Below, piece after piece: positions 25,628 to 59,475 of a DNA stretch of 64,000 nucleotides (the stretch's first letter is position 1; each line of letters opens with the position of its first letter). The stretch is taken from NCBI GenBank assembly GCA_963840455.1, contig CAWIYV010000014.1, positions 512,001 through 576,000 on the forward strand. The letters are read 5' to 3'. The notes beneath the pieces are model-generated. The model was not told where the DNA came from. It ran no database searches and was given only the letters and a program-made list of their open reading frames with translations. The translations under genes and the position numbers were made by a program. The DNA is from Nitrospirota bacterium (GTDB lineage: Bacteria > Nitrospirota > UBA9217).

Positions 25628-25629
25628 AA

Positions 25630-25661: not shown

Positions 25662-25686
25662 GATCATTTAAAGCTCGTAGATCGGA

Positions 25687-26486: not shown

Positions 26487-26759
26487 ATGACCATGCGGTT
26501 CCCGAGGCTCACGGGCAGGATATCTATCACCGAAGAGGAGGGGAAGGTCGTCATCGCCGGGGACCCCGAAGGCCTGCGGTCCTTCGGCAGGCTCCTGACC
26601 TGGCTCGGCGATGCTGACCAGGAGCAGTGGCCCTACCTGCCGCCTGGTGGCCATGCTCATATCCACGTCTACCCGAAGGACGACCTCAGCCCGGATTCGC
26701 GTGAGGTGGAGCTGATGCGTCTGGACGCAAAGCGATCCTCCGGATCTGCAGAGCAATGA
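26487..26759 (+). CDS. Imm32-like immunity protein
   Basis: IAGDPEGLRSFGRLL...HAHIHVYP...RLDAK. Family recalled from memory. Confidence 0.6.
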   Translation: MTMRFPRLTGRISITEEEGKVVIAGDPEGLRSFGRLLTWLGDADQEQWPYLPPGGHAHIHVYPKDDLSPDSREVELMRLDAKRSSGSAEQ

Positions 26760-26824
26760 AGCGTCTTCGGCGAGCACCCTCTCGCTCAACGCATCAGCGG
26801 AAGGCTCGATGATGCCCAGACCAT

Positions 26825-27532
26825 TCACTTCCTTCTTAATAGCCGCTCCAAACCCTTCTCCAACAGTTTTTCGGCGCCTGCCTTACCGACCTCGGTGCTC
26901 ACCTCAGCGAGGATGGCAGATACGATCTGCTTCGCCACTTCTTCCGGCGGCGCGCCATTCTTTCCGCCGATATCGGTCATTTCGATCCGCGATAGCGCGA
27001 CGGTCCGCGGCTTCCCGCCGAGCGCGGCAATGCGGATTTCAGTCTGGGCATTCTCGATCACGAGCCGCTTTATCCGGAGACGTTTTTCAACGCCCTTCCC
27101 GCCCCTGTCCCCGGTCCTCGACGGCTGGCCTGCCGCCAGGTTCTTCTTGAGCGCATCGACGTTCGCAACACCGGTTTCGTTCATCTCGTAGACCACCAGC
27201 GGAGCGGCGATGCGGATGTCGTCGATCACCACGGGGTTCGAAGCGATGGTGCGGGGAGCAATGCGGACGCTGATGCCGCCGAGCGAAAGGATATGGGGCG
27301 CCGAATACCCCGGCGGGTTTGCGACGGTCAGCCCCTCGATCGCCCCCTTGCCCTGCGCAGGACGGATGGATATGCGGTCGACCCGCACGGAGGTCCCTGT
27401 TGCTTGCGACCCGTAGCGTTCGATGGCGTTCTTGACGATCCCGTCGAGGTTTGTCCAGAGGAAGGTCAGGCCTGCGGCCAAGAGCAATCCGGCTGAGGCA
27501 AGGATCACGAGGAATTTCCGTGTGCGAGTCAT
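26825..27532 (-). CDS. AsmA/DUF748-like membrane-anchored protein
   Basis: N-terminal TM, AIERYGSQATGTSV and GLTVANPPGY. Confidence 0.7.
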   Translation of the reverse strand: MTRTRKFLVILASAGLLLAAGLTFLWTNLDGIVKNAIERYGSQATGTSVRVDRISIRPAQGKGAIEGLTVANPPGYSAPHILSLGGISVRIAPRTIASNPVVIDDIRIAAPLVVYEMNETGVANVDALKKNLAAGQPSRTGDRGGKGVEKRLRIKRLVIENAQTEIRIAALGGKPRTVALSRIEMTDIGGKNGAPPEEVAKQIVSAILAEVSTEVGKAGAEKLLEKGLERLLRRK

Positions 27533-36775: not shown

Positions 36776-37489
36776 CTACTGCTCCTGGCTCCTGTCTCCT
36801 GACTCCTGACTTCTTAGTTTTTCCAGCGCCACTTTCGCCGCCCGCTGCTCGGCCTCCTTCTTGTTCCTGCCGGTCCCCCGTCCGCAGACCTCGCCGCGTA
36901 TTGAGATCTCGACCGTGAACTCCTTCCGGTGGTCGGGGCCGGTTTCAGATACGACGCGGTACTCCGGCAGGATCTTGAGCCGCTCCTGGCAGAGCTCCTG
37001 GAGCTCGGTCTTGTGGTCCGCTGTGCCGCCCGCGGTCCGGACCCGGTCAATCGTGTCCCTGAAGAAGCGGGTGATGAAAGCGCCGGCCGGTTCCATGCCG
37101 CCGTCCAGGTAGAGGGAGGCGACGAGGGCCTCGAGGCTGTCGGCAAGGAGCGAGTCCTTGTCCCGGCCGCCGGTCTGCTCTTCGCCACGGCCAACCAGCA
37201 GGAACTCGCCGAGGCCGATCGTCCGCGCCACTGCGGCAAGGGACGGCTCGCTCACCACGGCCGCCCGGATGCGGGAAAGCTCCCCCTCGGAAGCTTCGGG
37301 AAGGGCGTTCATGAGGAGCTCGCTCACGACGAGACTGAGGACGGAGTCCCCCAGGAACTCCATCCGCTCGTTGTGCTCAGACAGGCGGTTCTCGTTGGCG
37401 TAGGATTTGTGGGTAAGCGCGCGCTCCAGCAGGCGGGGATCATGGTAGGTGAAGGCGATCTGCTGCTGGAGCTCGCTGACGGGGCGCAT
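36776..37489 (-). CDS. rnc: Ribonuclease III
   Basis: NERMEFLGDSVL and a dsRBD (KTELQELCQ...KKEAEQRAA). Confidence 0.97.
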   Translation of the reverse strand: MRPVSELQQQIAFTYHDPRLLERALTHKSYANENRLSEHNERMEFLGDSVLSLVVSELLMNALPEASEGELSRIRAAVVSEPSLAAVARTIGLGEFLLVGRGEEQTGGRDKDSLLADSLEALVASLYLDGGMEPAGAFITRFFRDTIDRVRTAGGTADHKTELQELCQERLKILPEYRVVSETGPDHRKEFTVEISIRGEVCGRGTGRNKKEAEQRAAKVALEKLRSQESGDRSQEQ

Positions 37490-37490
37490 G

Positions 37491-38732
37491 CTACGGCCGG
37501 AACTTCCTGAATACGAGGGTGGCGTTGGTGCCGCCGAACCCGAAGGAGTTCGAGATGGCGATGTCCACCTGCTTCTTTCGCGCCGTGTTCGGTATGTAGT
37601 CCAGGTCGCATTCAGGGTCCGGATTCTCGAGGTTGATGGTCGGCGGCAGGATGCCGCGTTCGAGCGCGAGGATGCTGATGACGGCTTCGACGCCGCCGGC
37701 AGCACCAAGCAGATGGCCGGTCATGGATTTCGTGGAGCTGATGGGAACCCTGCGGGCATGGTCCCCAAACACGGTCTTGATGGCGATGGTTTCGAGTTCG
37801 TCGCCGTACTTGGTAGACGTGCCGTGGGCGTTGATGTAGCCAACCTCCGCGGGTGAGATGCCCGCGTCCTTGATGGCCATGTTCATGCACCGGGCCGCGC
37901 CCTCGCCGTTCGGCGCCGGGGAGGTAATGTGGTAGGCATCTCCCGACAGGCCGTAGCCGATGACCTCGGCCAGGATGGTCGCGCCGCGCCCTTGGGCGAA
38001 CGCCAGGTCCTCCAGGACAATGATGCCCGAACCCTCGCCCATGACGAAGCCGTCCCGTTCCGCGTCGAAGGGGCGGCTCGCGCGTCCGGGCTCGTTGTTC
38101 CTTGTCGAGAGCGCCTTCATGGCGTTGAAGCCGCCGACGCCCAGCGGGCATATGCAGGACTCCGCGCCGCCGGCGAACATGGCATCGGCATCACCGCGCT
38201 GGATGATCTTGAACGCGTCGCCGATGGAGTGCGTGCCCGTGGCGCATGCCGTGACCGCGCAGGAGTTGGGGCCTTTTGCGCCAAAACGCATGGAGATGTG
38301 GCCGGCCATCTCATTGATGATCGACATGGGAATGAAAAAAGGAGTGATCCGGCGATACCCCTTTTCCATATATGCGCGATATGCCCGCTCGATCGCGGGC
38401 AGCCCGCCGATGCCGGCGCCGGCGATGACGCCGATGCGGTCGGCGTTCTCCGGGGAGATCACGAGCTTTGCATCATCCATGGCCATCTGGCTTGCAGCAA
38501 CGGCCAGATGGATGAACCGGTCCATCTTCTTGATCTCTTTAGGCTCGATGTACTTGGCCGCATCGAAGCCTTTCACCTCGCCCGCGATCTGGGTAGGGAT
38601 CTCCTTGTCATCAAAATGGGTAATGGGGCCGATGCCGCTCTTGCCGGCGATCAAGCCTTCCCAGCTCGCTTCCGTATCCAGACCGACGGGGGTGACCATG
38701 CCGACACCGGTGACCACGACTCTGCGATTCAA
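37491..38732 (-). CDS. fabF: 3-oxoacyl-ACP synthase II
   Basis: [21 protein letters not shown] and NSFGFGG. Confidence 0.97.
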
Positions 38733-38854
38733 TGAAACACCTCCTGCTCATAAAATCCGAAAAGCCAAAAGACCCCCCTCGCTGGACAGGGGAGCGGCCT
38801 TCTGGCTTTCGGAACATGCTGAGAACACGACGATGATCAACCTATCGCCGTTGA

Positions 38855-39121
<267 letters not shown>

Positions 39122-39145: not shown

Positions 39146-39886
39146 TTACATGTACATGCCGCCGTTCACATGGACCACCTGGCCGGTGATATAGGCGGCG
39201 GACGGTGATGCCAGGAACCGTACGGCGTTCGCCACGTCCTCGGACGAGCCGAGCCTTCCCAGGGGGATCTGTTTCGCCAGGTCCGCCCGCACCTGGTCGG
39301 TCAGGGCTTGGGTCATGGCGGTATCGATGAACCCGGGTGCCACGGCGTTCGCCGTGACGTTCCGGTTGGCGTATTCCCGGGCGATGGTCTTGGTGAGGCC
39401 GATGAGGCCGGCCTTGGATGCGACGTAGTTCGCCTGGCCGGCGTTGCCCATGGCGCCGACGATGGAGGCGATATTGATGATGGTGCCTGCCCGCTGCTTC
39501 GTCATGTGCTTCAGGGCAGCCTTGGTGCAGAGGAACGCGCCCTTGAGGTTGATTGACAGCACGAGGTCCCAATCCTCGTCCTTCATCCGGAGGATGAGCC
39601 CGTCGCGGGTGATGCCGGCGTTGTTCACGAGGATGTCGATCCTGCCGAACTTCTCCACGACCTGGTCGATCATGGCGGTCACGTCAGCGGATGCGGCCAC
39701 GTTGGCCTTCACGGCCAGGGACTTTCTGCCCTTCGCTTCGATGTCGGCGGCGGTCTTCTGGGCCGCTTCAAGGTTCACATCGCAGATGGCGACATCGGCG
39801 CCGTCCGCAGCGAGGCCCAGGGCGATGTCCCTGCCGATGCCCTGCGCGGCTCCCGTGACGAGCGCGATCTTTCCGTTCAAGCTCAT
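39146..39886 (-). CDS. fabG: 3-oxoacyl-ACP reductase
   Basis: TGAAQGIG, NNAGITRD and YVASK. Confidence 0.97.
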   Translation of the reverse strand: MSLNGKIALVTGAAQGIGRDIALGLAADGADVAICDVNLEAAQKTAADIEAKGRKSLAVKANVAASADVTAMIDQVVEKFGRIDILVNNAGITRDGLILRMKDEDWDLVLSINLKGAFLCTKAALKHMTKQRAGTIINIASIVGAMGNAGQANYVASKAGLIGLTKTIAREYANRNVTANAVAPGFIDTAMTQALTDQVRADLAKQIPLGRLGSSEDVANAVRFLASPSAAYITGQVVHVNGGMYM

Positions 39887-39897
39887 TCTATGGCTCC

Positions 39898-40830
39898 CTA
39901 CAATCCTAAGGCGCCGAGCGTTTCGCCCATGCTCTTCTGGTCTTCCACGTTCAGGACCTTCGCGCCCTTGGCGATCCGCTTCACGAGGCCCGAGAGGACC
40001 TTCCCGGGTCCGATCTCGACGAAGGTGTCGTAGCCTTCCGCCGTCATGCGGTTGATCGAGTCTTCCCAGTAGAGGGAGGAGCTGATCTGCCGGATAAGCG
40101 ACGGCCTCAGTTCTGCGGAGGTCCTGATGAACTTCGCATCGGCATTGTTCACGATGGGGATGCGAAGGTCTCTGATCGTTACCGTGTCGAGCTCCTTCGC
40201 CAGCCGGTCGCCTGCCTGCTTCATAAGGGAGCAGTGCGACGGCACGCTGACGGCGAGAGGGACCACTCTCTTCGCGCCCGCGGCCTTGGCCAGTTCCATG
40301 GCCTTTTCCACGGCATTTTTCTCGCCGGCGATGACGATCTGGCCCGGTGAGTTGTAATTTGCAGGGGCAACTATACCATTTTTGGACGCTTCAAGGCAAG
40401 TTTTTTCTACGGCGGCCCGGTCCATGCCGAGAATTGCCGCCATCAGGCCCACGCCCTCGGGCACGGCCTCCTGCATGTACTTGCCGCGCTTCTGCACGAG
40501 CGCAAGGGCGTCCTTCAGTTCGAAGCCGCCGGCGGCGGTGACGGCCGTGTACTCGCCGAGGCTGTGGCCAGCGGCAGTGCCTGCAGCCAGGCCGCGCCGC
40601 TCGAGGGGCCGCAGCATCGCGATGCTCGCGGCGAGGATGGCCGGCTGGGTGTTCTCCGTCATGTTCAGTTTCTCGGCCGGGCCGTGCATGCAGAGCTGGG
40701 CAAGGTCATAGCCGAGGAGGCCGCTTGCGAGATCGAAGACCTCCTTCGACTCCTTGAAATTCTCGATGAATTCCTTGGCCATGCCAACGTACTGCGAACC
40801 CTGGCCGGGAAAGATGAATGCGATCTTCAT
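39898..40830 (-). CDS. fabD: Malonyl-CoA:ACP transacylase
   Basis: FPGQGSQ and GHSLGE. Confidence 0.97.
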   Translation of the reverse strand: MKIAFIFPGQGSQYVGMAKEFIENFKESKEVFDLASGLLGYDLAQLCMHGPAEKLNMTENTQPAILAASIAMLRPLERRGLAAGTAAGHSLGEYTAVTAAGGFELKDALALVQKRGKYMQEAVPEGVGLMAAILGMDRAAVEKTCLEASKNGIVAPANYNSPGQIVIAGEKNAVEKAMELAKAAGAKRVVPLAVSVPSHCSLMKQAGDRLAKELDTVTIRDLRIPIVNNADAKFIRTSAELRPSLIRQISSSLYWEDSINRMTAEGYDTFVEIGPGKVLSGLVKRIAKGAKVLNVEDQKSMGETLGALGL

Positions 40831-40935
40831 GGTAACCTCTTGCGAGAACGTGTAGGGGGTCAAGGGCGAGGGGTGAGGCGCAAGGTGTCGTAACGATGCC
40901 CTGATCCCCTTACGCCTCACGCTTCACGGATTTTA

Positions 40936-42126
40936 CTATCCCCGTATTTCCTTGAACTTCTTGATCAGGACCGGAAGGACCTCGTTCGCGTCTCCGACGA
41001 TGCCATAGGTCGCGACATTGAAAATGGGCGCGTCAGGGTCCTTGTTGATGGCAACGATCGTTTCGGAGGACTGCATGCCTGCTACGTGCTGGATGGCGCC
41101 GGAGATGCCGACCGCGATGTAGAGCTTGGGGCAGACGGTCTTGCCGGTCTGGCCCACCTGGTGCGAGTACGCGATCCAGCCCTCATCCACGGCTCCCCGC
41201 GTTGCCGCGACGGCACCACCGAGAACCCTGGCAAGCTCTGCAAGCATGTGGAAGTTCTTCTGGCTGCCAAGGCCCCGGCCGCCGGCAACGATGATGTCGG
41301 CCTCGCAGATGTTCACGGTCTCGGTCAGTTCTTCGACGGTCTTGAGCACCTTCGTGCGGACGCTGTTAGCCTGGGTGAACTTCACGTCGACGATCTCGCC
41401 CTTCCGGCTGTCGTCACGCAGGGCCGGCCTCATCACCTTGTGCCGGACCGTGGCCATCTGGGGCCGGTGGTTCGGCGTCACGATGGTGGCCATGATGTTC
41501 CCGCCGAAGGCTGGCCGGGTCTGGTGCAGATGGCCGGTCGCGGCGTCGATGTCAAGCACCGTACAGTCCGCAGTGAGGCCGGCATAGAGCGTTGAGGCCA
41601 CCTTGGGGAAGAAAGAACGGCCGATGGCCGTTGCGCCGGCGAGGATGATCTCGGGCTTGTGCTCCCGTGCAAGCGCGGTCAGGATTGCCGCGTAGGAGTC
41701 GTCATTGAATTCCCTGAGCGCCGGGTCGTCGGCAACGTACACGGTGTCAGCGCCGTAGGCGATCAGGTCATTGGCCTTTGCCCTGATCCCCGAGCCCAGG
41801 AAGACGGCGGACAATTTCGCCTGCCTCTTGCCGGCAAGCTTCCTGCCCTCGCCGAGCAGTTCCAGCGAGACGCTGGCGATCTCGCCCTTGTGCTGCTCCG
41901 CGAAGACCCAGACGCCCTTGTACGACGAAAGGTCCTTCGCGGGCCCTATCTGTTCGATGTCCTTCTCGATGGCCTTGAACTCGCAGGCCTCGACGCAGGC
42001 GCCGCAGAGGGTGCAGGCATCGGTGATGAACGCCTTGCCCTCGCGCATCTCGATGGCGCCGAAGGGGCAGGCCGACACGCAGGTCTCGCAGCCTGTGCAG
42101 ATATCCGGTTTTACTTTAACGCTCAC
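40936..42126 (-). CDS. etfA: Electron transfer flavoprotein alpha subunit with N-terminal 2[4Fe-4S] ferredoxin domain
   Basis: [37 protein letters not shown] and GISGAIQH. Confidence 0.95.
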
Positions 42127-42151
42127 GAAAGACTCCTTGAATATCGTGCAG

Positions 42152-42937
42152 TTAGATCAGCGATTGTTCCTTCAATTTTTTCGCCACCGTAGCGACCTGA
42201 TCCTCGATGCTGCCGGAGAGGATCTCCCGCTGGCCGCGCGGCGCGGGTGGGAAGATCCGGACTACCTGGGTGGGGGAGCCCTTCAGGCCGATCTTTTCCT
42301 CGTCGGCGCTGATGTCCTTGGCCGTCCAGGCGGTGACCTTCAGGTTCTTTGCCTTCATCTTGCCCTTGAGGGACGGGACACGGGGCTCGTTGATCTCCTT
42401 CACCACCGTGATGAGGGCCGGAAGGGATGTCTCAACGACATCGTAACCTTCGTCCATAAGCCGTTCAGCGATCATCTTCCGACCCTCGATCTGCTCGATC
42501 TTCCTTATATAAGCGACGAAAGGGATGCCGAGCATGTCGGCGGTCTCGGGCCCGACCTGCGCTGTGTCGCCGTCGATGGCCTGCTTGCCCGCGATCACGA
42601 GGTCATACTCCCCGACCTTCCTGATCCCCTGGGACAGGGCATACGAGGTCGCCCAGGTGTCGGCGCCGGCAAAGGCGCGGTCCGACAACAGCACCACATC
42701 ATCCACCCCAAGGGAGACAGTCTCCTTCAGCGCCTCGGCCGCCTGGGGCGGGCCCATGGTGACCGCGGTCACCTTGCCGCCGTGCTTCTCGCGAAGGCGG
42801 AGCGCCTCCTCGATGGCGTACCGGTCGTAGGGATTGATGATGCTGGGCACCCCGTCGCGGATGAGGGTGTTCGTCTCCCGGTTGATCTTCACTTCCGCGG
42901 TGTCCGGGACCTGTTTTACCAGAACGATGATGTTCAT
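42152..42937 (-). CDS. etfB: Electron transfer flavoprotein beta subunit
   Basis: KQVPD, RDGVPSIINPYD, GADTWATS and GKQAIDGDTAQVG. Confidence 0.95.
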   Translation of the reverse strand: MNIIVLVKQVPDTAEVKINRETNTLIRDGVPSIINPYDRYAIEEALRLREKHGGKVTAVTMGPPQAAEALKETVSLGVDDVVLLSDRAFAGADTWATSYALSQGIRKVGEYDLVIAGKQAIDGDTAQVGPETADMLGIPFVAYIRKIEQIEGRKMIAERLMDEGYDVVETSLPALITVVKEINEPRVPSLKGKMKAKNLKVTAWTAKDISADEEKIGLKGSPTQVVRIFPPAPRGQREILSGSIEDQVATVAKKLKEQSLI

Positions 42938-43030
42938 GAACAATGTTCTCCGAAGATTGGGTAGAGAAGCAGTCTAGTCGCAGTCGAGAAACGATCCCAT
43001 TGTCCCGACTGCATTATGACTGCTCTACGA

Positions 43031-44188
43031 TTATTTTGCCCTCGTTGCTTCGCGGATCATGTCCAGGGCGACGACGTTGCGCTGGACCTGGTTGGTGCCC
43101 TCATAGATCTGGAGGATTTTGGCGTCGCGCATCATCTTCTCGACGGGGTATTCCTTCATGTAGCCCGAGCCGCCCATGACCTGGACCGCGTCGGTGGTCA
43201 CCTTCATCGCGACGTCAGTGGCGAAGTACTTTGCCATGGCCGAGGCACGGGAGAAGTCCTTGGCGCCGCTGTCCATCATGCGTGCCACGGCGTACACGAG
43301 GGCGCGTGCGGCCTCGGTCTGGGTCTGCATGTCTGCCAGCATGTGCTGGACCGCCTGAAACGAGGTGACGGGCTGTCCGAACTGGACCCGGCCCTTGGCG
43401 AACTTGATGCACTCGTCGATTGCGCCCTGCGCCACGCCGACGCCCTGGGCCCCCACGCCGGCGCGAGAGCAATCGAGGGTCTTCATGGCAACGATGAAGC
43501 CCATGCCTTCTTTCGTGATGAGGTTCTCCTTGGGGATACGGCAGTTGTTGAAGATGAGCTCCGTGGTGGACGAGGCACGGATGCCCATCTTGTTCTCTTT
43601 CTTGCCGAACGTGAAGCCGGGCGTGCCTTTTTCCACGATGAATGCCGAAGCGCCGCGGGGGCCCTTGGACTTGTCGGTGATGGCGATGATGGTGTAGATC
43701 TCAGCCTCGCCGCCGTTCGTGATCCACTGCTTGGTGCCGTTCAGCACGTACTCGCTGCCTTCCAGCTTCGCCGTGGTCTGGATGCCGCTGGCGTCGCTGC
43801 CTGCATTGGCCTCGGTCAGGCCGAAGGCCACAAACTTCTTTCCCGCTGCAATATCAGGCAGGTATTTTTTCTTCTGCGCGTCCGAGCCGTGGAGCAGTAT
43901 CGGGTAGCTGCCGAGTGCGTTCGCCGCGTAGGTGGTGGACACGCCAAGGCAGGCCTTGGAGATCTCCTCGATGGCGATGTAGAAATCCAGGCTCTTCTTG
44001 CCGAGGCCGCCATACTCTTCGGGGATGTAGATGCCAAAGAGGTCTGCCTGGGCCATGGCCTTCATGATCTCCGTCGGGAACTTGTTCTGCTCGTCCAATT
44101 CGGCCCGCACCGGCACGATCTTCTCGACCGCGATCTGCCGTGCGAGATCGCGTATCATGATCTGCTCTTCCGTCAACAGGTAGTCCAT
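43031..44188 (-). CDS. Acyl-CoA dehydrogenase (butyryl-CoA dehydrogenase-like)
   Basis: FGLTEANAGSD, NGTKQWITN, RVQFG and QIYEGTNQVQR. Confidence 0.95.
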   Translation of the reverse strand: MDYLLTEEQIMIRDLARQIAVEKIVPVRAELDEQNKFPTEIMKAMAQADLFGIYIPEEYGGLGKKSLDFYIAIEEISKACLGVSTTYAANALGSYPILLHGSDAQKKKYLPDIAAGKKFVAFGLTEANAGSDASGIQTTAKLEGSEYVLNGTKQWITNGGEAEIYTIIAITDKSKGPRGASAFIVEKGTPGFTFGKKENKMGIRASSTTELIFNNCRIPKENLITKEGMGFIVAMKTLDCSRAGVGAQGVGVAQGAIDECIKFAKGRVQFGQPVTSFQAVQHMLADMQTQTEAARALVYAVARMMDSGAKDFSRASAMAKYFATDVAMKVTTDAVQVMGGSGYMKEYPVEKMMRDAKILQIYEGTNQVQRNVVALDMIREATRAK

Positions 44189-44265
44189 TACTTCCTCCGC
44201 AAGAACGAATTTTTATGATTAGAGATGAACCCGGATGAATTCAGAATGCACGATGCCGTCGATCA

Positions 44266-45246
44266 CTACCACCGGACCAGCGCCGACGCCCAGGTGAGCC
44301 CGCCGCCGAAGGCTTCGAACAAAAGGAGATGGTTTTCCTTGATCCTGCCATCACGGACAGCTTCATCGAGGGCCATGGGAATGGAGGCCGCCGAGGTATT
44401 GCCGTATTTCGGCAGCGTAAGCACTACTTTTTCCATGGGCATGTTGAGACGCTGCGCCATGGCCAAGATGATCCTCAGATTGGCCTGATGCGGCACAAGA
44501 TAGTCGATGTCCTCCGGTTTTACCTTGTTGTGCTCGAGCGTTTCCTGCACCACGGCCTCCAAGGCTCGAACCGCGGCCTTGAACGTTTCATTGCCCCTCA
44601 TTCTGATGAAGTGCATCCGTTTCCGGATGGTATCGTGGGAAGCCGGATGAGAAGCGCCTCCGGCGGGGACACGGATCAAGTCCCCGAAAGAACCATCCGA
44701 ATGCAGATGTGTCGAAAGTATCCCGCGTTTACCTGCATGGCGCTGGATTACCACCGCCCCCGCGCCGTCTCCGAAGAGGATGCAGGTCGTCCGGTCCTCC
44801 CAGTCCGTGTAGCGCGAGAGGATCTCGGCGCCGACCAGCAGGATGTTCTTGTACGTGCCGGACTGGATGAATGCGCTTGCGATGGACATCCCGTAAATGA
44901 AGCCCGAACAGGCGGCGGAGATATCGAACGCAGCCGCTTTTTTGGCGCCGAGCTTTTCCTGCAGTACGCATCCCATGCTGGGCAGGATGGTGTCCGGCGT
45001 CATGGTCGCGACAAGAATAAGATCCAGGTCACGCGCGCTGAGTCCCGCCGCTTTCAGCGCTTTTTGGCTTGCCTCATAGGCAAGATCGGATGTCGTCTGG
45101 TCCTTTTCCGCGATCCTTCGCTCTTTGATGCCGGTGCGGTCCATGATCCACTCGTCGCTGGTATCTACAAGCTTTTCCAGATCGTGGTTGGTGATGACCT
45201 TTTTCGGCGCATACGAGCCGGTCCCTGTTATGCGTGCGTGGATCAT
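44266..45246 (-). CDS. fabH: 3-oxoacyl-ACP synthase III
   Basis: AACSGF, PHQANLRI and YGNTSAAS. Confidence 0.97.
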   Translation of the reverse strand: MIHARITGTGSYAPKKVITNHDLEKLVDTSDEWIMDRTGIKERRIAEKDQTTSDLAYEASQKALKAAGLSARDLDLILVATMTPDTILPSMGCVLQEKLGAKKAAAFDISAACSGFIYGMSIASAFIQSGTYKNILLVGAEILSRYTDWEDRTTCILFGDGAGAVVIQRHAGKRGILSTHLHSDGSFGDLIRVPAGGASHPASHDTIRKRMHFIRMRGNETFKAAVRALEAVVQETLEHNKVKPEDIDYLVPHQANLRIILAMAQRLNMPMEKVVLTLPKYGNTSAASIPMALDEAVRDGRIKENHLLLFEAFGGGLTWASALVRW

Positions 45247-46256
45247 TTTGATTTTGCCAGCTCCATGTTCTTTTTAATGTCCTCGTGGATGTGCCTGTTG
45301 ACCTCGCTCCGCGCGAGCTCGGAGGCAACACGGATTGCGTTCTTGATGGCGCGGTCCGAGGACCGGCCGTGGCTGATGATGCTGATGCCATTGATGCCGA
45401 TGAGCGGCGCGCCGCCGTATTCGGCGTAATCGATGCGGCGCTTGAGGGCACGGAATGCGGGCCGCATCATGAAGTAGCCGAGCTTCCGGATAAGGTTGTC
45501 GCCGATGTTCTCCCGGATCATGTACCCGATGGTCTCGGCGACGGCCTCGGATAGCTTGAGCACCACGTTGCCGATGAATCCGTCGCAGACGACGACGTCG
45601 ACCTTGCCGCTCATCACATCGCGGCCCTCGACGTTCCCGATAAAGTTGAGCGACGTCTCGGTCAGGAGCTTGAACGCCTCCTTGGTGAGCTCGTTGCCCT
45701 TGGTCTCCTCTTCGCCGATGGACAGGAGCCCGACCTGGGGGTTCGGATTCTTCAGGAGGTATTTAGCGTACACCTCGCCCATGATGGCGAACTGGAGGAG
45801 GTGGGCCGGTTTGCAGTCCACGTTGGCGCCCACGTCGAGCACGATGCAGGTCCCTTTGACGGTCGGCATGAAGGTCGCGATGGCCGGGCGTTCGATCCCT
45901 TCGAGCTTGCCCAGGACGAAAAGGGACGTGGCCATGGCCGCGCCGGTGTGGCCGGCGCTGATGATGGCAATTGCTTCGCCGCTCTTCACCAGCTCGTTGG
46001 CAACACGGATCGAGGAGTCCTTCTTCCGCCGGAAGACCGTCGAGGGCGAGTCGAGCATGTCGACGACCTCGGTGGCGTTCCGGACTTCGATGGGCAGGGA
46101 TGCCGCGCCGTGATGCTTCCGGAGCTCGGCCTGGACCGACTGCTCGATCCCGACGAGGATGATGCCGACGCCGAACTCTTTCGCGGCGTGCACGGCCCCG
46201 GCCACAACGGCCTGGGGCGCATAATCCCCTCCCATGGCATCTACTGCGATCTTCAT
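45243..46256 (-). CDS. plsX: Phosphate acyltransferase
   Basis: IAVDAMGGD, LDVGAN and DGFIGNV. Confidence 0.97.
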   Translation of the reverse strand: MKIAVDAMGGDYAPQAVVAGAVHAAKEFGVGIILVGIEQSVQAELRKHHGAASLPIEVRNATEVVDMLDSPSTVFRRKKDSSIRVANELVKSGEAIAIISAGHTGAAMATSLFVLGKLEGIERPAIATFMPTVKGTCIVLDVGANVDCKPAHLLQFAIMGEVYAKYLLKNPNPQVGLLSIGEEETKGNELTKEAFKLLTETSLNFIGNVEGRDVMSGKVDVVVCDGFIGNVVLKLSEAVAETIGYMIRENIGDNLIRKLGYFMMRPAFRALKRRIDYAEYGGAPLIGINGISIISHGRSSDRAIKNAIRVASELARSEVNRHIHEDIKKNMELAKSK

Positions 46257-46340
46257 GTGCGCGATTGCTCCCGACAAGACAAAAGGCAAAGGGAAACCCG
46301 CACGGGGCGGGGTCTCCTTTGCCTTCCAGATTGTGCGCGG

Positions 46341-46530: not shown

Positions 46531-47061
46531 CTACTCCTTTTCCGGTTTAATGATTGTCTTGAGCGCGGCGAAGGGGCTTGCTGCACCCTCCGGTAGTTCG
46601 GTCCGGCAATCGCATTCCCGTTCGTTCCGGTCTCCGCCGCAGACCGGGCAGAGGCCTTTGCAATCGGGGCTGTGGACCGGGACCATGGGGATGGCCAGGA
46701 GCAACTGCTCCCTGATGAACTCTTTGGGCTCGATCTCTTCGCCCCGGTAGAACTCCGTGTCAAGCTCTGACCTGCCGAGTTCATGCTCCGCGGACAGCTT
46801 CCGGGCTCCCTCAGGGATCAGGTCGAAGTCAATAGCCGCTTCTTTTATGGGGAAAGTAAAGCGCTTCAGGCACCGGCTGCATTCCAGCGAGGCGGTCGCT
46901 TCGACGGTCCCGTTCACATGGAATATCCCTGCGCCTTCTGCCTTGACCGTTACCTGTGCCATGAACGGCGTATCGGCGGTCCCTTCGTCGAACAGATCAA
47001 GCTTGTCGGCCAGTTTGACTGTCAACCCTTCAGGAGGTATATCATTGATCTTAATGGCCAT
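46531..47061 (-). CDS. yceD: YceD/DUF177 family protein
   Basis: CSRCL, CKGLCPVCG and position upstream of rpmF. Confidence 0.9.
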   Translation of the reverse strand: MAIKINDIPPEGLTVKLADKLDLFDEGTADTPFMAQVTVKAEGAGIFHVNGTVEATASLECSRCLKRFTFPIKEAAIDFDLIPEGARKLSAEHELGRSELDTEFYRGEEIEPKEFIREQLLLAIPMVPVHSPDCKGLCPVCGGDRNERECDCRTELPEGAASPFAALKTIIKPEKE

Positions 47062-47233
47062 TTGATCGCCTCCGGGGCCAAGAGTCTGGAATTATAAGGT
47101 GAAGCCCTCGATTTGTCAAGGGAAAAGACCGGTCAGGACAGGGTTTCGAAATCAGAAATCAGGAGCCACGGGTCAGGAGAGAGAAGGGATATTTCCAATC
47201 TCCCATTGTAGAGAAGAGCGGCCCGTGGATCAC

Positions 47234-53167: not shown

Positions 53168-54187
53168 ATGGGTCTTGTCCTTATTCGTATCATTTTTGTC
53201 TTTATCGGGACGCTTCTGGGTTATTACGTCTCGACGCAGCTCGACGAACAGATCAGCAAGGTGGAGGGCATGGCCATTGGGTTCGCCGTGGCCATCAGCA
53301 TCATCCTGACCGAGTTCCTCTTCCGGCGGGTGGCCCTTAAGGTCATCATCGGCGGCATCCTGGGATTCATCATCGGTCTTACGTCCGCAAATATCATTGC
53401 CGCGCCGTTGAAGCTCGTGCCGCTGGAACGGAGCATCGTGAACTTCCTGGTCCTGCTCATGAACGCGTTCTTCGGCTACATGGGCGTGACCATCGGCATC
53501 CGGGAAGGGGAGCGGTTCAACCCGGCGAACATCAAAAAGCTCTTCAAGGGAGGAGCAGACGAGAACCTCAAGATCCTCGACACCAGCGTGATCATCGACG
53601 GCAGGATCGCCGACGTGTGCGAGACGGAGTTCCTCGACGGCACGCTCATCATCCCGCAGTTCATCCTGCAGGAGCTGCAGCACATTGCAGATTCCTCGGA
53701 CTCTCTCAAGCGCGCCCGCGGCAGAAGGGGGCTCGACATCCTTCACCGCATCCAGAAGATGGGCCACATGGAGGTCCGGATCGTCGATGACGACTTCCCC
53801 AAGATCCGCGAGGTGGACAGCAAGCTCATCGCGCTCGCCAAACGCATGGGCGCCAAGGTCATCACCAATGATTTCAACCTGAACAAGGTTGCCGAGCTGC
53901 AGGGCGTGACAGTGCTGAACATCAACGACCTGTCGAACGCCGTGAAGCCGGTGGCGCTGCCGGGCGAGACCATGCGCGTATTTGTGTTGAAGGAAGGCAA
54001 AGAACCCGGCCAGGGCGTTGCCTACCTCGACGACGGCACCATGATCGTAGTGGAGAACGGCAGGCGGTTCATCAGCAAGAACGTGGAGGTCTCGGTAACG
54101 AGCGTGCTCCAGACCGCGGCGGGCAGGATGATCTTCACCCGGCTCAAGGAGGACGCGGAGCACGAACTGCAGGGCGCGGAGCGGTAG
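53168..54187 (+). CDS. Membrane PIN/TRAM domain protein (YacL-like)
   Basis: [24 protein letters not shown] and YLDDGTM. Confidence 0.93.
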
Positions 54188-54295
54188 CGGCATGCGAAAC
54201 ATGCCGAATTCACAATTCAAGGTTCAAAATCTAAAATAGCGGAATGTCTTTTTTGAATTTTTCATTTTACGTTTTGAATTCTTTCAGGAGGAAAG

Positions 54296-55048
54296 ATGTC
54301 AGGGCATTCAAAGTGGGCAACGACAAAGCATAAGAAGGCCGCTACTGATGCAAAGCGCGGCAAGATCTTCACCAAGATCACCAAGGAGATCACCGTGGCG
54401 GCCAAGCTGGGCGGCGGCGACCCCGACGGCAATCCCCGGCTCCGTACCGCTGTGGCCAAGGCCAAGAGCGTGAGCATGCCGGCGGAGAACATCAAACGGG
54501 CCATCCAGAAAGGCACCGGTGAGCTGCCCGGCGTGTCCTACGAGGAGATAACGTACGAGGGATACGGCCCGAACGGCGTGGCGATCATCGTCGAGGTCCT
54601 GACGGACAACCGGAACAGGACGGTCTCCGAGATCCGCAATATCTTCAGCAAGGCCGGTGGCAACATGGGTGAGACTGGCTGTGTCTCCTGGATGTTCCAT
54701 AAGAAAGGGTACATTGTCGTGGCCCGTGCCAAGTCAGACGAAGAGAAGCTCATGAGCCTGGCGCTGGACGCCGGTGCTGAGGACATGCAGACCGAGGATG
54801 ACAACTTCGTCATCACTACGGCGCAGAGCGATTTTGAAAAGGTCAAGAAAGCGCTCGAGGACGCTGGCATTCCGCTCGAGGTCGCCGAGGTCACGATGGT
54901 TCCCCAGACCTACGTGAAGATCGACGGGGAAAAGGTCGCCGGGCAGATGATGCGACTCATGGAGGCCATCGAGGACAACGACGACGTGCAGAATGTGTAC
55001 GCGAACTTCGACATCCCCGACGAAGTGATGAACGCGGTGAGCGCGTAG
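54296..55048 (+). CDS. yebC: YebC/PmpR family protein
   Basis: [16 protein letters not shown] and TDNRNRT. Confidence 0.95.
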
Positions 55049-55126
55049 TGGAGAGCCGACAGCTCCTGGCGGGAGCTGCTGCCAGGGGTCACGAACGATG
55101 AGCTACGGGCCATCGAGGGGGAGATC

Positions 55127-55651
55127 ATGAGGGTGCTGGGTATCGATCCGGGGACGCTCACGAGCGGGTACGGCATCGTTTCCGAAGAAGACCACAAGCT
55201 GTTCCACATCGTGTCGGGCGGCATCAGCCCGTCGGCGAAACAGCCTTTTCCGAAGCGGCTCAAGAAGATCTACGAGGAGCTGGAGAAGATCATCGAGAAG
55301 TACAAGCCCCACGTGGTCGTGGTGGAGGACCTGTTCGTGTCGCACAACATCAAGGCGGCGCTCAAACTGGGACACGCGCGGGGTGTTGCGATCCTTGCGG
55401 CGGTGAACGCGGGCATCCCGGTGTTCGAGTACGCGCCCACGGAAGTGAAGCAGGCGGTGGTGGGAACGGGCAAGGCCGACAAGAAGCAGGTCCAGGCGAT
55501 GGTAAAGGCGCTGCTGGAACTTCCCAAGGCGCCCCATCCGGCCGATGCGGCGGACGCCCTTGCCGCGGCCATCTGCCACATCCATTCCTCCCGCATGCGG
55601 GAGATGCTGAAAAGCTCCTCTTCCCTCAAGGGGACGGGCAGAACGCGATGA
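55127..55651 (+). CDS. ruvC: Holliday junction resolvase
   Basis: LGIDPG and DAADALAAAICH. Confidence 0.96.
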   Translation: MRVLGIDPGTLTSGYGIVSEEDHKLFHIVSGGISPSAKQPFPKRLKKIYEELEKIIEKYKPHVVVVEDLFVSHNIKAALKLGHARGVAILAAVNAGIPVFEYAPTEVKQAVVGTGKADKKQVQAMVKALLELPKAPHPADAADALAAAICHIHSSRMREMLKSSSSLKGTGRTR

Positions 55652-56253
55652 TCGCCTGGTTGAGGGGGGCTGTTCAGCGCAAGACGGCCGACTCAGTCAT
55701 CATCGATGTCTCCGGTGTGGGCTACCTGGTGTCCATACCGGTGTCCACGCTCGGCGCGGTCCCCGAGCCCGGGGAAGAGATCAGCCTCCACATCCATACC
55801 CACCTCCGCGAGGATTCCCTCAGCCTCTTCGGTTTTGCCACGGAACTGGAGAAGGGGCTTTTCCAGCTCCTATTGGGCGTTTCCGGCATAGGGCCGAAGC
55901 TTGCTCTATCGGTCCTGTCGGGACTCTCGGCGCAGGACCTTCTGGCCGCCATCGGGTCGTCTGATGATGCGAAGCTCTGCTCAATCCCCGGCATAGGCAA
56001 AAAGACGGCTGCGCGGCTCTGCCTTGAGCTCAAAGACAAGGTCCGGCAGCTGGTGCCGGAAGCTCGGCTGCAGACCGGGGCCGGTGCATCTGTCCTGTCC
56101 GGGCATCTTGATGATGCTGTCTCCGCGCTTGTCAACCTGGGCTACAAGAGGCCCGTTGCCGAGGATGCCGTGAAGAAGATCGACCAGGGCCGCCCGGACC
56201 TCCGCATCGAGGACCTGATCCGGGAAGCCTTGAGCACGTTGATGAAACGATAG
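55648..56253 (+). CDS. ruvA: Holliday junction branch migration protein A
   Basis: VSGIGPK, IPGIGKKTA and ALVNLGY. Confidence 0.96.
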   Translation: MIAWLRGAVQRKTADSVIIDVSGVGYLVSIPVSTLGAVPEPGEEISLHIHTHLREDSLSLFGFATELEKGLFQLLLGVSGIGPKLALSVLSGLSAQDLLAAIGSSDDAKLCSIPGIGKKTAARLCLELKDKVRQLVPEARLQTGAGASVLSGHLDDAVSALVNLGYKRPVAEDAVKKIDQGRPDLRIEDLIREALSTLMKR

Positions 56254-56341
56254 CATACCAGCCGCTCACCGGCTGTCCGATGCCGCCGGTCGGGAGGATA
56301 GCCGCAGACCTCCGTCTGCGTGAAGGGACCAAGGAAGAACG

Positions 56342-57361
<1,020 letters not shown>

Positions 57362-57558
57362 ATACAAAAGAATCAATTTATCATAAGATGGCAAGAACAG
57401 TTCACCGCGAAGATGCGAAGTGCGCGTAGAAAATCTTATGGTTGGATTTCTCAAAGCATGAAAGCCTTGGCGACCTTCGCGCCTTGGCGGTTCAAAGGTT
57501 TTGATTCTGCCTTGTCCGGGACAGGGTATCGCTGGATTACGCGAGGAAACCGAAGATC

Positions 57559-57780
57559 ATGAAAAAAGACCGCGCAAGACCGGGAGACAAGGCCGAGGAC
57601 AAGGCGCTGCCGGTCGCTGCGTCATCCCGGCCGTTCCTGTACTATCTGGTCGCCACGGCGATGGTCTGCGGTGCCCTGGTCATGGTCATCGAGATCCTGG
57701 GCTCACGCGTCACCGGACCGTTCTTTGGCGCCAGCTTCTTCGTCTGGACATCGCTGATCACGGTGACGCTGGTCGCATGA
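57559..57780 (+). pseudogene. N-terminal fragment of a fused MFS/spermidine-synthase-like membrane protein
   Basis: GALVMVIEILGSRVTGPFFGASFFVWTSLITVTLVA*, stopping after two TM helices. Confidence 0.65.
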
Positions 57781-58307
57781 ACATCCTATTTCATATCTGC
57801 TGCGCTCCCTGCGCCATCTATCCGCTGTCCCGTCTGCGCAAGCAGGGGTTCTCCGTCCAGGGATACTTTTACAATCCCAATATCCATCCTTACCTTGAAT
57901 ACCAGAAGCGCATGAGCACGGTGCAGGAATTCTCGGCCCGCGCGGGCCTGTCTGTATCGTACCGGGATGGATACGATCTTGACGAGTTCATCATTCGCGT
58001 CGCGGGAAAAGGTAAGGGGCGATGCGAGCAGTGCTACCGGATGAGGCTTGATGCAGCGGCAGCGGAAACCAACAGGAGCGGGTCCAGTCTGTTCACGACC
58101 TCGCTGCTGTACAGTAAATACCAGAACCACGATCTCATCCGGGCCGTGGCAGAGGAAATGGCCCGGGAGCACCGGGTCGAGCTCTACTACGAGGATTTCC
58201 GACAAGGCTGGCGCGAGGGGATCGTGGAGTCGAAGGCCATGGGACTCTATCGCCAGCAGTACTGCGGGTGCGTCTATAGTGAGCGGGATAGATATAAAAG
58301 CAGATGA
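57777..58307 (+). CDS. queH: Epoxyqueuosine reductase
   Basis: HICCAPC, YNPNIHP, RCEQCY and YRQQYCGC. Confidence 0.92.
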   Translation: MNILFHICCAPCAIYPLSRLRKQGFSVQGYFYNPNIHPYLEYQKRMSTVQEFSARAGLSVSYRDGYDLDEFIIRVAGKGKGRCEQCYRMRLDAAAAETNRSGSSLFTTSLLYSKYQNHDLIRAVAEEMAREHRVELYYEDFRQGWREGIVESKAMGLYRQQYCGCVYSERDRYKSR

Positions 58308-58383
58308 GGCCGATGGCAGTCACAAGAGGATGAACAGCGCTGCATCAGTATCAGTCCGCTTGCACCAAAATCTGAAATGGCAT

Positions 58384-59475
58384 ATGCATGTGAATAAAAG
58401 CTGCGTGAAAATCTGTTTCGCTGTCCTGATCCTGCTCTCAGCAAAACCCTCCCTTGCCGAGAACATCCGCGTGGCGATCGCGGACAACCAGCGGTTGGTG
58501 ACGCTTCAGACCGCCGCGGGTCTTCGGATCGAGGGCTCTCCCGGCCATCGCCAGGAGAAGGCGGTCACCTTTCGGGCGGCCGATATGGGACGCCAACCCG
58601 TTCGCGTTTCGTCTTCGGGCGAACAGGTCAAGGTGAACGGCAAGGCGTACCGCGGCACGATTGAGATACGAAAAAAAGGGAACGGCACGCTCCTCGTCAT
58701 CAACGACCTCGACTTGGAGTCCTATCTCCTGGGCGTGGTCGCCGCGGAGATCCCTGCTGACTGGGAAATGGAGGTACTGAAGGCGCAGGCTGTGGCATCG
58801 CGCACCTATGCGCTGTATCAAAAGCAGAATGCCGGCAGGCGGCTCTATCACATCCTGGCGACCGTGGACAGCCAGATGTACCTGGGAAAGCGGGGAGAGC
58901 GGCAGCGCGCGGCTCAGGCGGTCAAAGAGACTCGGGGCATGATCATCACCTATCATGGCGAGGTGATCCCCGCATTCTACCATGCAAGCTGTGGCGGACA
59001 TACCGAGGACGCCCTTGTGCTGTGGGGCATCGATGAGCCCTATCTCAAAGGCGTCGATTGTGATTGCCAGAACATCTCCACGTACGGTTCGTGGGAGAAG
59101 CGGGTGACGATGGCGGGCATCATTCGGGCCTTGGGCCGGGAAGGGTATCGGCTGGGAAAGGTCAACAGCGTCGAGATCGGCACGCTGACCGCTGCGGGTC
59201 GGGTAAAGAACGTGCTGTTCCGCCATGCGGGCGGGACAACATCGGTCCCCGCGGAGACCCTCCGGGCGACGCTAGGATATTCTTCGCTTCCCAGCATATT
59301 TTTTGAACCGGAGATCATTGGTCGGGAGGTCGTGCTGTCCGGCCGGGGCCTTGGTCACGGTGTCGGGCTTTGCCAGTGGGGCGCAAAGGAGATGGCGCGG
59401 ACCGGCGCTGATTATCAGGCCATCCTTGCCTATTACTACCCCGGGACCGCTCTTGCCCGGAGGGGAGTGCGCTGA
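58384..59475 (+). CDS. SpoIID/LytB domain protein
   Basis: YLLGVVAAE, LKAQAVASRTY and GHGVGLCQWGA. Start approximate. Confidence 0.92.
   Translation: MHVNKSCVKICFAVLILLSAKPSLAENIRVAIADNQRLVTLQTAAGLRIEGSPGHRQEKAVTFRAADMGRQPVRVSSSGEQVKVNGKAYRGTIEIRKKGNGTLLVINDLDLESYLLGVVAAEIPADWEMEVLKAQAVASRTYALYQKQNAGRRLYHILATVDSQMYLGKRGERQRAAQAVKETRGMIITYHGEVIPAFYHASCGGHTEDALVLWGIDEPYLKGVDCDCQNISTYGSWEKRVTMAGIIRALGREGYRLGKVNSVEIGTLTAAGRVKNVLFRHAGGTTSVPAETLRATLGYSSLPSIFFEPEIIGREVVLSGRGLGHGVGLCQWGAKEMARTGADYQAILAYYYPGTALARRGVR

Follow-up and report, generated by a model that had tools for sequence, protein, structure and literature searches.

An acyl-CoA dehydrogenase-EtfAB trio in a Nitrospirota fatty-acid synthesis operon as the probable enoyl-ACP reductase

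Why are genes for an acyl-CoA dehydrogenase (ACAD) and both subunits of an ETF lodged between fabH and fabD, in the middle of a bacterial fatty-acid synthesis operon? The question is raised by a 64,000-nucleotide stretch (hereafter the window) of contig CAWIYV010000014.1 from a Nitrospirota bacterium (GCA_963840455.1, positions 512,001 to 576,000), for which a sequence-only reading had proposed that the trio performs the enoyl-reduction step of type II fatty-acid synthesis (FAS II). Enoyl-ACP reductase is the pace-setting and most varied step of bacterial fatty-acid synthesis, with four unrelated classes known, and these enzymes are drug targets. In our view the ACAD-EtfB-EtfA trio probably acts as enoyl-ACP reductase in the type II fatty-acid synthase of this organism, a reading that draws on the position of the genes in the fab operon, the failure to find FabI, FabK, FabL and FabV, a phylum-wide complementarity with known reductases, a gene slot shared with some of them, and an ETF of the bifurcating type.

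Profile matches recover every gene that had been named, at its place on the minus strand, in the order yceD-rpmF-plsX-fabH-[ACAD-etfB-etfA]-fabD-fabG-acpP-fabF-rnc. A sigma-70-like sequence upstream of yceD (47091-47119, minus strand, as for all features below), recognised by consensus match only and agreeing at 12 of 12 positions, is likely the operon promoter. It is followed by yceD (46531-47061; PF02620, 93 bits), rpmF, encoding ribosomal protein L32 (46341-46523; PF01783, 85.6 bits), plsX (45243-46289; TIGR00182, 392.7 bits, over the cut-off) and fabH (44266-45246; TIGR00747, 464.7 bits, over the cut-off). The trio itself comprises the gene for a 385-aa ACAD-family flavoprotein (43031-44188), etfB for the small ETF subunit of the bifurcating type (42152-42943; PF01012), the true start of which is probably the ATG at 42937, and etfA for the large subunit (40936-42126; Fer4, ETF and ETF_alpha Pfam domains). 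Beyond it lie fabD (39898-40920; TIGR00128, 351 bits, over the cut-off), fabG (39146-39886; TIGR01830, 340 bits, over the cut-off), acpP with its DSL motif (38855-39091; NF002149, 137.8 bits), a terminator-like hairpin between acpP and fabF found by pattern match only (38772-38795), fabF (37491-38732; TIGR03150, 662 bits) and rnc for RNase III (36776-37708; PF14622, PF00636 and dsrm), whose real start is probably further downstream. From fabH to fabD the gaps bordering the trio genes measure 77, 87, 25 and 15 bp, and fabD orthologues suggest a fabD start further downstream, which would make the last of these larger. The insertion of the trio between fabH and fabD is thus present as described, and it recurs in relatives and is not a chance arrangement. 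In RNA data, seven runs had shares of at most 0.17 of the stretch; four runs yielded short contigs only, a few of them near-identical to etfB, etfA, fabD and fabH and possibly derived from DNA carry-over, and no contig from these four runs bridged a gene junction, so that the RNA data lend co-transcription no usable support.

Both ETF subunits have the same five bifurcating ETF complexes (6FAH, 4KPU, 7QH2, 5OL2 and 7KOE) as their top five solved matches, at 283-413 bits for EtfA and 214-267 bits for EtfB, against at most 157 and 96 bits, respectively, for non-bifurcating ETFs. EtfA aligns with CarE (6FAH_A, 413 bits) over residues 1-393, Fe-S domain included, and the best solved matches of EtfB are CarD (6FAH_B, 267 bits), 5OL2_B, 7KOE_A, 7QH2_B and 4KPU_B. 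The N-terminal 2x[4Fe-4S] ferredoxin domain that had been noted in EtfA (residues ~1-60, nt ~41947-42126) is borne out by a pair of CxxCxxCxxxC motifs (residues 10-20 and 38-48) with Fer4 matches, and the accompanying motifs, TRPAFGGN in EtfA and RDGVPSIINPYD in EtfB, are likewise found. By homology, the ETF is a member of the bifurcating group and not of the respiratory AMP-containing group, and a ferredoxin-coupled (bifurcating) activity of the trio is, on the same homology, probable.

The ACAD carries all three family domains (PF02771, PF02770 and PF00441); its best NCBIfam model is AcrC at 469.7 bits, under the 640 cut-off, and its best solved match is Bcd (5OL2_C, 422 bits), with 4L1F_A at 405 bits. 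E363 of the IYEGTNQ motif, which we take to be the catalytic base, does not vary among 23 orthologues, and its motif lines up with the corresponding one in both structures. The orthologues, with a mean column identity of 80% across phyla, form one tight clade in the tree (SH-aLRT 97), separate from paralogues taken from genomes with FabK, a FabL-like SDR or FabI and from two extra copies in the trio genome G071. The organism encodes one free-standing ACAD and one EtfAB; ACAD matches among all ORFs of the genome number only two, the second being a domain inside a 2626-aa fusion protein. We propose that the ACAD would be the catalytic subunit of an enoyl-ACP reductase, although its close, whole-length alignment with authentic butyryl-CoA dehydrogenases counts against that role. 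No feature specifying ACP over CoA was found in its sequence. A co-fold of two ACAD chains, two FAD and AcpP (alignments of 23 rows each), which returned a score of zero, is neutral on the matter.

The close alignment with these dehydrogenases favors the notion of an ordinary Bcd/EtfAB-type enzyme that oxidises or reduces CoA thioesters, whether in beta-oxidation together with fadD-fadA-fadB or in providing FabH with butyryl-CoA or another acyl-CoA as primer, the place of the trio in the fab operon being a matter of co-regulation of lipid metabolism only. The window holds no beta-oxidation genes, as had been claimed, and the same contig carries a fadD-fadA-fadB cluster at a distance of ~290 kb; this cluster has no ACAD of its own, so that the trio ACAD could also, or instead, serve acyl-CoA oxidation. 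Against a role on CoA thioesters stand three closed trio genomes (G088, G057 and G013; two of family f15, probably Thermodesulfovibrio, and one of f11) from which crotonase and 3-hydroxyacyl-CoA dehydrogenase are absent, so that nothing in them would make or use enoyl-CoA; FabZ is kept in all three. For this reason the supply of primers to FabH, offered as the alternative in the sequence-only reading, is unlikely as a general role. No crt, hbd or thl genes occur beside any trio inspected.

If the trio reduces enoyl-ACP, does the genome encode any recognised enzyme for the same step? The assembly is 100% complete in 14 contigs, its nearest relatives being Nitrospirota/Thermodesulfovibrionia MAGs, and profile and tblastn searches extend to the whole of it the absence of fabI, fabK, fabL and fabV earlier noted for the window: no canonical enoyl-ACP reductase is found. 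The best FabI-model match reaches 74 bits, against 292 for Escherichia coli FabI; the best FabL-model match is FabG itself (181 bits, cut-off 328); FabV (PF12241) has no match at E<=0.01, with one control genome positive; and no tblastn alignment exceeds 31% identity when E. coli FabI, a sister-family FabK and three FabL-like SDRs serve as queries. The trio itself contains no SDR. For FabK (TIGR03151, cut-off 453) the best match, at 125 bits, lies within a 2612-aa PKS-like ORF (contig C9), and the next, at 96 bits, is a 393-aa NMO-family protein (contig C4). That this NMO protein, or else the PKS-like protein through its NMO-type ER domain, is the real enoyl-ACP reductase seems to us extremely improbable. 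These weak matches, and the finding of NMO-protein orthologues in every one of 36 genomes from the family to which the window belongs, speak in favor of such an assignment, but both scores fall far under the cut-off, and the NMO protein matches Helicobacter pylori FabX (7E1Q) over its full length at 202 bits versus at most 70 bits for FabK structures. It furthermore occurs alongside a canonical FabK in G001, and it went undetected in all 10 f15 genomes examined as well as in G037, G130 and G030, trio genomes without exception.

The relation between the trio and known reductases, which the sequence-only reading had suggested profiling, was followed across 151 Nitrospirota genomes, identical in every search, with adjacency determined by pairing match coordinates and with thresholds of at least 54% identity for the ferredoxin-domain EtfA orthologue, at least 220 bits for FabI and over 453 bits for FabK. 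The genomes partition into 79 with the trio, 54 with FabI, three with FabK only, 11 with a FabL-like SDR and four with none, and the trio is complementary to the other three. Each of the 79 genomes with the EtfA orthologue has one ACAD orthologue (70-93% identity), and none of them has a FabI at or above 220 bits, a FabK over the cut-off or a FabL-like orthologue; seven have weak FabK-like matches of 148-258 bits. Conversely, all 54 genomes with FabI at that threshold are without the trio. The four genomes without any candidate are either of 85-90% completeness or interrupted by contig ends. FabV had no match in these 151 genomes or in a set of 26 genomes, at E-values for which there was no positive control.

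Complementarity extends to gene position. Of the 79 trio genomes, 74 have FabD no more than 300 bp from EtfA, two have a FabD-like gene 2.5-2.8 kb away, and three have no listed place for FabD; relocation of the ACAD gene, with etfB-etfA still beside fabD, is seen in many relatives. An assignment of the genes upstream of such detached ACADs as accB-accC was wrong, these genes being a phosphoribosyltransferase, QueD and PmbA/TldD. FabK over the cut-off occurs in four genomes, one of which also has FabI, and is directly upstream of FabD in all four; the FabL-like SDR is directly upstream of FabD in 11 of 11. Inspected loci read plsX-fabH-[FabK]-fabD and plsX-fabH-[SDR]-fabD, which is the slot of the trio, and fabH is directly next to fabD in four of four FabI-family genomes inspected. 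An enzyme confined to CoA thioesters would leave this common slot unexplained, and it would leave 79 of 151 genomes without an enoyl-ACP reductase, whereas every other complete genome has one.

Missing known families do not prove a missing enzyme, and an enoyl-ACP reductase that belongs to a different family and has escaped recognition could be at work, with the trio in some other FAS-linked redox role such as a FabX-like acyl-ACP dehydrogenation for unsaturated fatty acids. ACADs are usually oxidative, and the genome encodes a FabX homologue, so such backtracking chemistry does occur in the lineage. Nevertheless, we regard this possibility as very unlikely. Five small trio genomes of family f15, 99-100% complete and two of them closed, leave few candidates: each has only two SDRs, FabG and a classical YxxxK SDR, no real NMO protein was found in any of the five, and each has two MDR proteins, which in G088, the one genome checked, resemble polyol/threonine dehydrogenases. 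None of the SDR, NMO and MDR candidates in this tally, the MDR pair being identified in G088 only, looks like a reductase of the required kind. In addition, the trio alternates with known reductases in both position and phyletic pattern, and bifurcating ETFs with Bcd or CarC operate in the reductive direction.

The arrangement is not restricted to one phylum. Among 80 related loci the ACAD lies inside a fab operon in 36, and 22 of these 36 are in MAGs not labelled Nitrospirota; trio synteny is present in MAGs whose labels span at least seven phyla. A lack of conserved synteny, together with the presence of a canonical enoyl-ACP reductase, had been named in advance among the grounds for abandoning the proposal; no such reductase was found in the genome, and the synteny is kept both within the phylum and in MAGs labelled as others. 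Among 20 non-Nitrospirota trio MAGs, their completeness unstated, none has a genuine FabI or a FabK over the cut-off, and four have FabK-like proteins of 260-358 bits, under the curated cut-off and possibly functional. Bacillota orthologues of the same tight ACAD clade are found outside fab operons, and three of six of these genomes have a genuine FabI, which favors a role on CoA thioesters; on the other side, these loci are flanked by FolD/RACo/corrinoid or ArgC/ArgJ genes and are not butyrate operons. Weighing these points with the gene content and positional data above, we think it unlikely that the trio is an ordinary acyl-CoA enzyme. The enoyl-reduction role in FAS II claimed for it is supported by the absence of other reductases, the conserved synteny and the 151-genome complementarity.

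As an enoyl-ACP reductase the trio would draw on NADH, with electrons entering at the bifurcating FAD of EtfB. One electron would pass via the EtfA FAD to the FAD of the ACAD, where trans-2-enoyl-ACP would be reduced to acyl-ACP, and the second, low-potential electron would leave through the Fe-S domain to ferredoxin, such that each elongation round would consume 2 NADH and yield one reduced ferredoxin. More tentatively, and with confidence a little short of even, we propose that the bifurcating ACAD-EtfAB constitutes a fifth class of bacterial enoyl-ACP reductase, unrelated to the other four, that spends 2 NADH per enoyl-ACP and returns reduced ferredoxin, that it may be the sole reductase in most Thermodesulfovibrionia, cultured Thermodesulfovibrio included, and that it may occur in anaerobes of at least seven phyla by label. 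If so, a reductase class based on Bcd/Etf-type machinery would fill an annotation gap in many anaerobes, and membrane-lipid synthesis would itself feed low-potential electrons back to the cell; absent such a class, 79 of the 151 sampled Nitrospirota genomes would seem to have no enoyl-reduction step. Should the complex bifurcate as its relatives do, this would be the first anabolic housekeeping pathway to regenerate reduced ferredoxin and would alter the energy and redox accounting of sulfate reducers and of other anaerobes that live under energy limitation. The reading of lipid hydrogen-isotope signals would also be affected, because the hydride route would differ from that of FabI. A full-text search, with subscription journals and supplements outside it, found no paper tying an ACAD/Etf complex to enoyl-ACP reduction; for Desulfovibrio, a passage of PMC4916218 assumes FabI.

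Among known systems, Bcd/EtfAB (Clostridioides difficile 5OL2; Acidaminococcus fermentans 4L1F and 4KPU) has the same three subunits in the order acad-etfB-etfA, and it matches the trio in all of them (the ACAD at 422 bits to 5OL2_C, EtfA at 286 and EtfB at 241 bits) with the IYEGT motif kept. The trio differs in residing in a FAS II operon and not in a crt-bcd-etfBA-hbd butyrate operon, in the extra N-terminal 2x[4Fe-4S] domain of its EtfA, in the lack of crotonase/Hbd in several of its hosts, and in its proposed substrate, enoyl-ACP instead of crotonyl-CoA. The caffeyl-CoA reductase CarCDE of Acetobacterium woodii (6FAH) ranks first among the solved structures matched by EtfA and by EtfB (CarE 413 bits, CarD 267 bits), whereas CarC matches the ACAD at 325 bits, more weakly than the Bcd enzymes, and CarCDE works in caffeate respiration rather than in lipid synthesis. 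That the ACAD fold can take ACP- or PCP-bound substrates follows from MbtN, RedW/PigA and AnaB (4IRN), family members acting on carrier-protein thioesters to which the trio ACAD is distantly matched (75-249 bits, cut-offs 500-700); unlike the trio, these enzymes are oxidative, serve secondary metabolism and have no bifurcating ETF. FabX of H. pylori (PMC8626469), a flavin/Fe-S FAS II enzyme that interconverts acyl-ACP and enoyl-ACP, is a single-subunit dehydrogenase/isomerase of the NMO family for unsaturated fatty acids and is unrelated to the trio; a homologue is encoded elsewhere in the same genome. Finally, FabI, FabL, FabK and FabV catalyse what we propose to be the same reaction in the same pathway, with phyletic distributions complementary to that of the trio, and in sister families FabK and the FabL-like SDR take the very fabH-fabD slot that the trio occupies here. 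Those reductases are single NAD(P)H enzymes, non-homologous to the trio, whereas the latter is a three-subunit FAD/Fe-S complex that probably engages a second electron acceptor, ferredoxin.

In the 4.03-Mb genome that carries the window (G000; window at G000:C14:512001-576000; 14 contigs, 100% complete, with Nitrospirota/Thermodesulfovibrionia MAGs as nearest kin), an acyl-CoA dehydrogenase-family gene (ACAD, 43031-44188), etfB (42152-42943) and etfA (40936-42126) lie between fabH and fabD on the minus strand, and every gene named in the sequence-only reading is indeed present there in the order yceD, rpmF, plsX, fabH, ACAD, etfB, etfA, fabD, fabG, acpP, fabF, rnc. All fab genes of this operon exceed curated NCBIfam cut-offs, a sigma-70-like promoter matching 12/12 consensus positions precedes yceD, and the only notable intergenic hairpin is found 3' of acpP. 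EtfA begins with two CxxCxxCxxxC motifs, and the further motifs quoted for EtfA and EtfB in that reading were also recovered. RNA libraries yield only short contigs over the operon, of a length insufficient for reading co-transcription. A contig from the X1 run, probably of DNA, joins fabD straight to fabH and skips 3541 bases of the trio (window 40818 to 44360); because its shorter side comprises only 29 letters, it probably stems from a relative in which the slot is unoccupied. In five sampled Nitrospirota genomes (G030, G121, G091, G062 and G130) the EtfA match ends on the same base on which the FabD match starts, which suggests overlapping stop and start codons and translational coupling of etfA to fabD.

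The absence of fabI, fabK, fabL and fabV, previously claimed for the window, holds for the entire genome in model searches and, for FabI, FabK and FabL, also in tblastn: FabV gives no match, the FabI model reaches at most 74 bits (vs. 292 for E. coli FabI), the top match of the FabL model is FabG itself (181 bits; cut-off 328), and the FabK model (cut-off 453) picks up part of a PKS-like ORF of 2612 aa at 125 bits and a 393-aa NMO protein at 96 bits. Eight further SDRs scanned in G000 are FabG-like or generic, and when E. coli FabI, three FabL-like SDRs and a FabK from a sister family serve as tblastn queries, identities do not exceed 31%. The 393-aa NMO-family protein (G000:C4:37183-38361; L002:1393-2574), which carries a Cys-rich insert, was weighed as a FabK and ruled against by that 96-bit score and by its best match among solved structures, H. 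pylori FabX (7E1Q, the structure to which PMC8626469 gives this name). Because the FabX match extends over the full length at 202 bits vs. at most 70 bits for FabK structures, the protein is more likely a dehydrogenase/isomerase of unsaturated fatty-acid synthesis; it is kept in 36/36 genomes of the window's family, whereas searches of family f15 did not recover it. The 2612-aa ORF (G000:C9:about 53300-58900) resembles a megasynthase of the PUFA or PKS type, its NMO-type ER region being joined by regions similar to KS, AT and KR. Another group of fab-like genes, the cluster ACP-KS-FabZ-KS-FabG (G000:C10:255143-259004), is encoded on a single strand with no reductase; its FabG copy matches the flexirubin FlxB model at 261 bits, and the cluster may belong to an aryl-polyene or flexirubin-type pathway. 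In another part of the window (20749-27000), GC content drops to 0.49-0.51, against about 0.60 elsewhere, after a tRNA gene (20749-20821). This stretch is probably an island that integrated at the tRNA; it carries an IS1595-family transposase (24763-25614) and, upstream of a 372-aa ORF lacking Pfam matches, a c-di-GMP-I-GGC riboswitch (21325-21403, 70 bits).

The same complementarity between trio and known reductases is seen across one common sample of 151 Nitrospirota genomes of at least 85% completeness, searched with EtfA, FabI, FabK, FabV, FabD, ACAD, the NMO protein and the FabL-like SDR. EtfA was matched in 85 of them, only weakly in six (G143, G001, G007, G011, G020, G105), and a full orthologue (identity at least 54%) is present in 79, every one of which carries a single ACAD orthologue (70-93% identity). 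With coordinates paired between the EtfA and FabD searches, the two genes lie less than 300 bp apart in 74 genomes out of 79; two others have a FabD-like gene 2.5-2.8 kb from EtfA, and for three the place of FabD is unlisted. None of the 79 trio genomes contains a FabI of at least 220 bits, a canonical FabK or a FabL-like orthologue; FabK-like matches of 148-258 bits occur in seven in all, and one trio genome, G074, shows weak FabI-like (151 bits) and FabK-like (148 bits) matches. Among the 72 genomes without an EtfA orthologue, FabI scores at least 220 bits in 54, FabK exceeds its cut-off in four (three of them without FabI), and the FabL-like SDR is found in 11 (family f16, 10/10; f20, 1/1); four genomes with neither trio nor a reductase found are each 85-90% complete or cut at contig ends. 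FabV was found in none of the 151, in a search without a positive control. Kinship among the genomes means that these counts are not independent, and no statistics are attached to them; at the family level, trio and other reductases alternate several times.

This alternation is mirrored at the fabH-fabD position itself. FabK lies directly upstream of FabD in 4/4 genomes where it exceeds the cut-off, as in the G001 locus plsX-fabH-FabK-fabD-fabG-acpP-fabF (FabK 501 bits), and the FabL-like SDR does so in 11/11, with the arrangement plsX-fabH-SDR-fabD in G108, G064 and G105, whose SDR has FabL as its best NCBIfam match (157-162 bits). In the FabI-family genomes inspected, fabH adjoins fabD (4/4). 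From the fetched loci and this adjacency, the Nitrospirota position is therefore either unoccupied, FabI then being encoded elsewhere, or taken by FabK, a FabL-like SDR or the trio, an alternation of the kind classically left by non-orthologous displacement of a single function.

The synteny is conserved beyond the phylum. Among the best 80 ACAD loci of a species-genome collection, 36 lie within a fab operon, 6 read ACAD-etfB-etfA-fabD, 9 show the trio, or its start, unaccompanied by fab genes, and in 29 the ACAD stands by itself; 22 of the 36 come from MAGs labelled as other phyla, including Thermodesulfobacteriota, Margulisiibacteriota, Saganbacteria, Rokuibacteriota, Omnitrophota, Actinomycetota and Pseudomonadota, labels whose reliability is uncertain. 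Searches of 20 of the 22 MAGs (all except L063 and L083), of unstated completeness, found no genuine FabI (0/20), no FabK over its cut-off (0/20) and, without a positive control, no FabV; 4/20 encode a FabK-like protein (260-358 bits). The 82 close ACADs all fall into a single clade with short branches (SH-aLRT 97). Seven paralogues with 37-44% identity lie outside it; the trio genome G071 contributes two of these, and genomes with FabK, FabL-like or FabI the other five. Across phyla, the clade members share 67-72% identity with the window protein (mean column identity 80%), a conservation exceeding that of FabD or EtfA inside Nitrospirota. Bacillota members of the clade have unrelated neighbours, and FabI is present in 3/6 of their genomes, so the clade is not the sole reductase everywhere. 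A Thermodesulfobacteriota MAG locus (L072, 623-6100) reads yceD-plsX-ACAD-fabG-acpP-fabF, with neither etfB/etfA beside the ACAD nor a fabH or fabD match; its genome encodes a 260-bit FabK-like protein.

A role in acyl-CoA metabolism has to be weighed against this. Some 290 kb from the trio, G000 carries a fadD-fadA-fadB-like cluster (G000:C14:about 219700-225300; L112:5748-11292) of an acyl-CoA synthetase, a thiolase and a 743-aa crotonase+3HCDH protein, without an ACAD of its own. G000 encodes a single free-standing ACAD and a single EtfAB; besides the window gene, a profile of 89 ACADs detects just one domain, within a giant fusion protein. The window ACAD may also act on CoA esters, or alternatively the fusion protein may serve the cluster. 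That 2626-aa ORF (G000:C14:90989-98869, minus strand; L125:490-8370) comprises an N-terminal FAD-oxidoreductase, a long stretch without Pfam matches, ACAD middle and C-terminal domains (1672-1890), ETF (2080-2182) and ETF-alpha FAD (2494-2575) domains; to our knowledge, a single-chain ACAD-ETF fusion as large as this is unusual.

The small trio genomes differ: G088, G057 and the closed f11 genome G013 encode FabZ, with crotonase and 3-hydroxyacyl-CoA dehydrogenase absent. Family f15 (five genomes of 1.6-2.0 Mb, 99-100% complete, two closed) is probably the cultured genus Thermodesulfovibrio, since an ACAD labelled as from a Thermodesulfovibrio sp. groups with that of G088 with full support. 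Its five genomes hold only two adh_short_C2 SDRs, FabG and a classical YxxxK enzyme, no real NMO protein (an ORF of about 494 aa gives the top match, at 47 bits), and two MDR proteins each, which in G088, the one genome checked, best match solved sorbitol, ketose or threonine dehydrogenases. Gene order in the small genomes is DUF996-etfB-etfA-fabD-mdh-ndk, with the ACAD divergent 2.4 kb upstream, and pdxJ-acpS-etfB-etfA-fabD in G013.

Together, comparative genomics supports the central proposal of the sequence-only reading, and we consider it probable that the trio carries out enoyl reduction in FAS II; that it would, in addition, bifurcate to ferredoxin when acting on ACP substrates is a more tentative proposition, to which we give slightly less than even chances. 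Searches of full-text literature outside subscription journals and supplements yielded no work connecting an ACAD/Etf complex with enoyl-ACP reduction. No NCBIfam model exceeds its cut-off for ACAD, EtfB or EtfA. The best solved matches of the ACAD are the Bcd enzymes of the bifurcating C. difficile and A. fermentans systems (422 and 405 bits), with which it shares the IYEGT motif, and it is so close to true butyryl-CoA dehydrogenases that ACP and CoA specificity are indistinguishable from sequence alone. EtfA matches CarE of caffeyl-CoA reductase over its full length, Fe-S domain included (413 bits), and the five solved bifurcating ETFs are the top five matches of both EtfA and EtfB, non-bifurcating ETFs reaching about one third of their scores; this family membership suggests that the trio bifurcates electrons. 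The type of machine is thus already known from Bcd/EtfAB and CarCDE, whereas the proposed substrate and pathway role are new, and among enoyl-ACP reductases the trio would, if this is true, constitute a new class.
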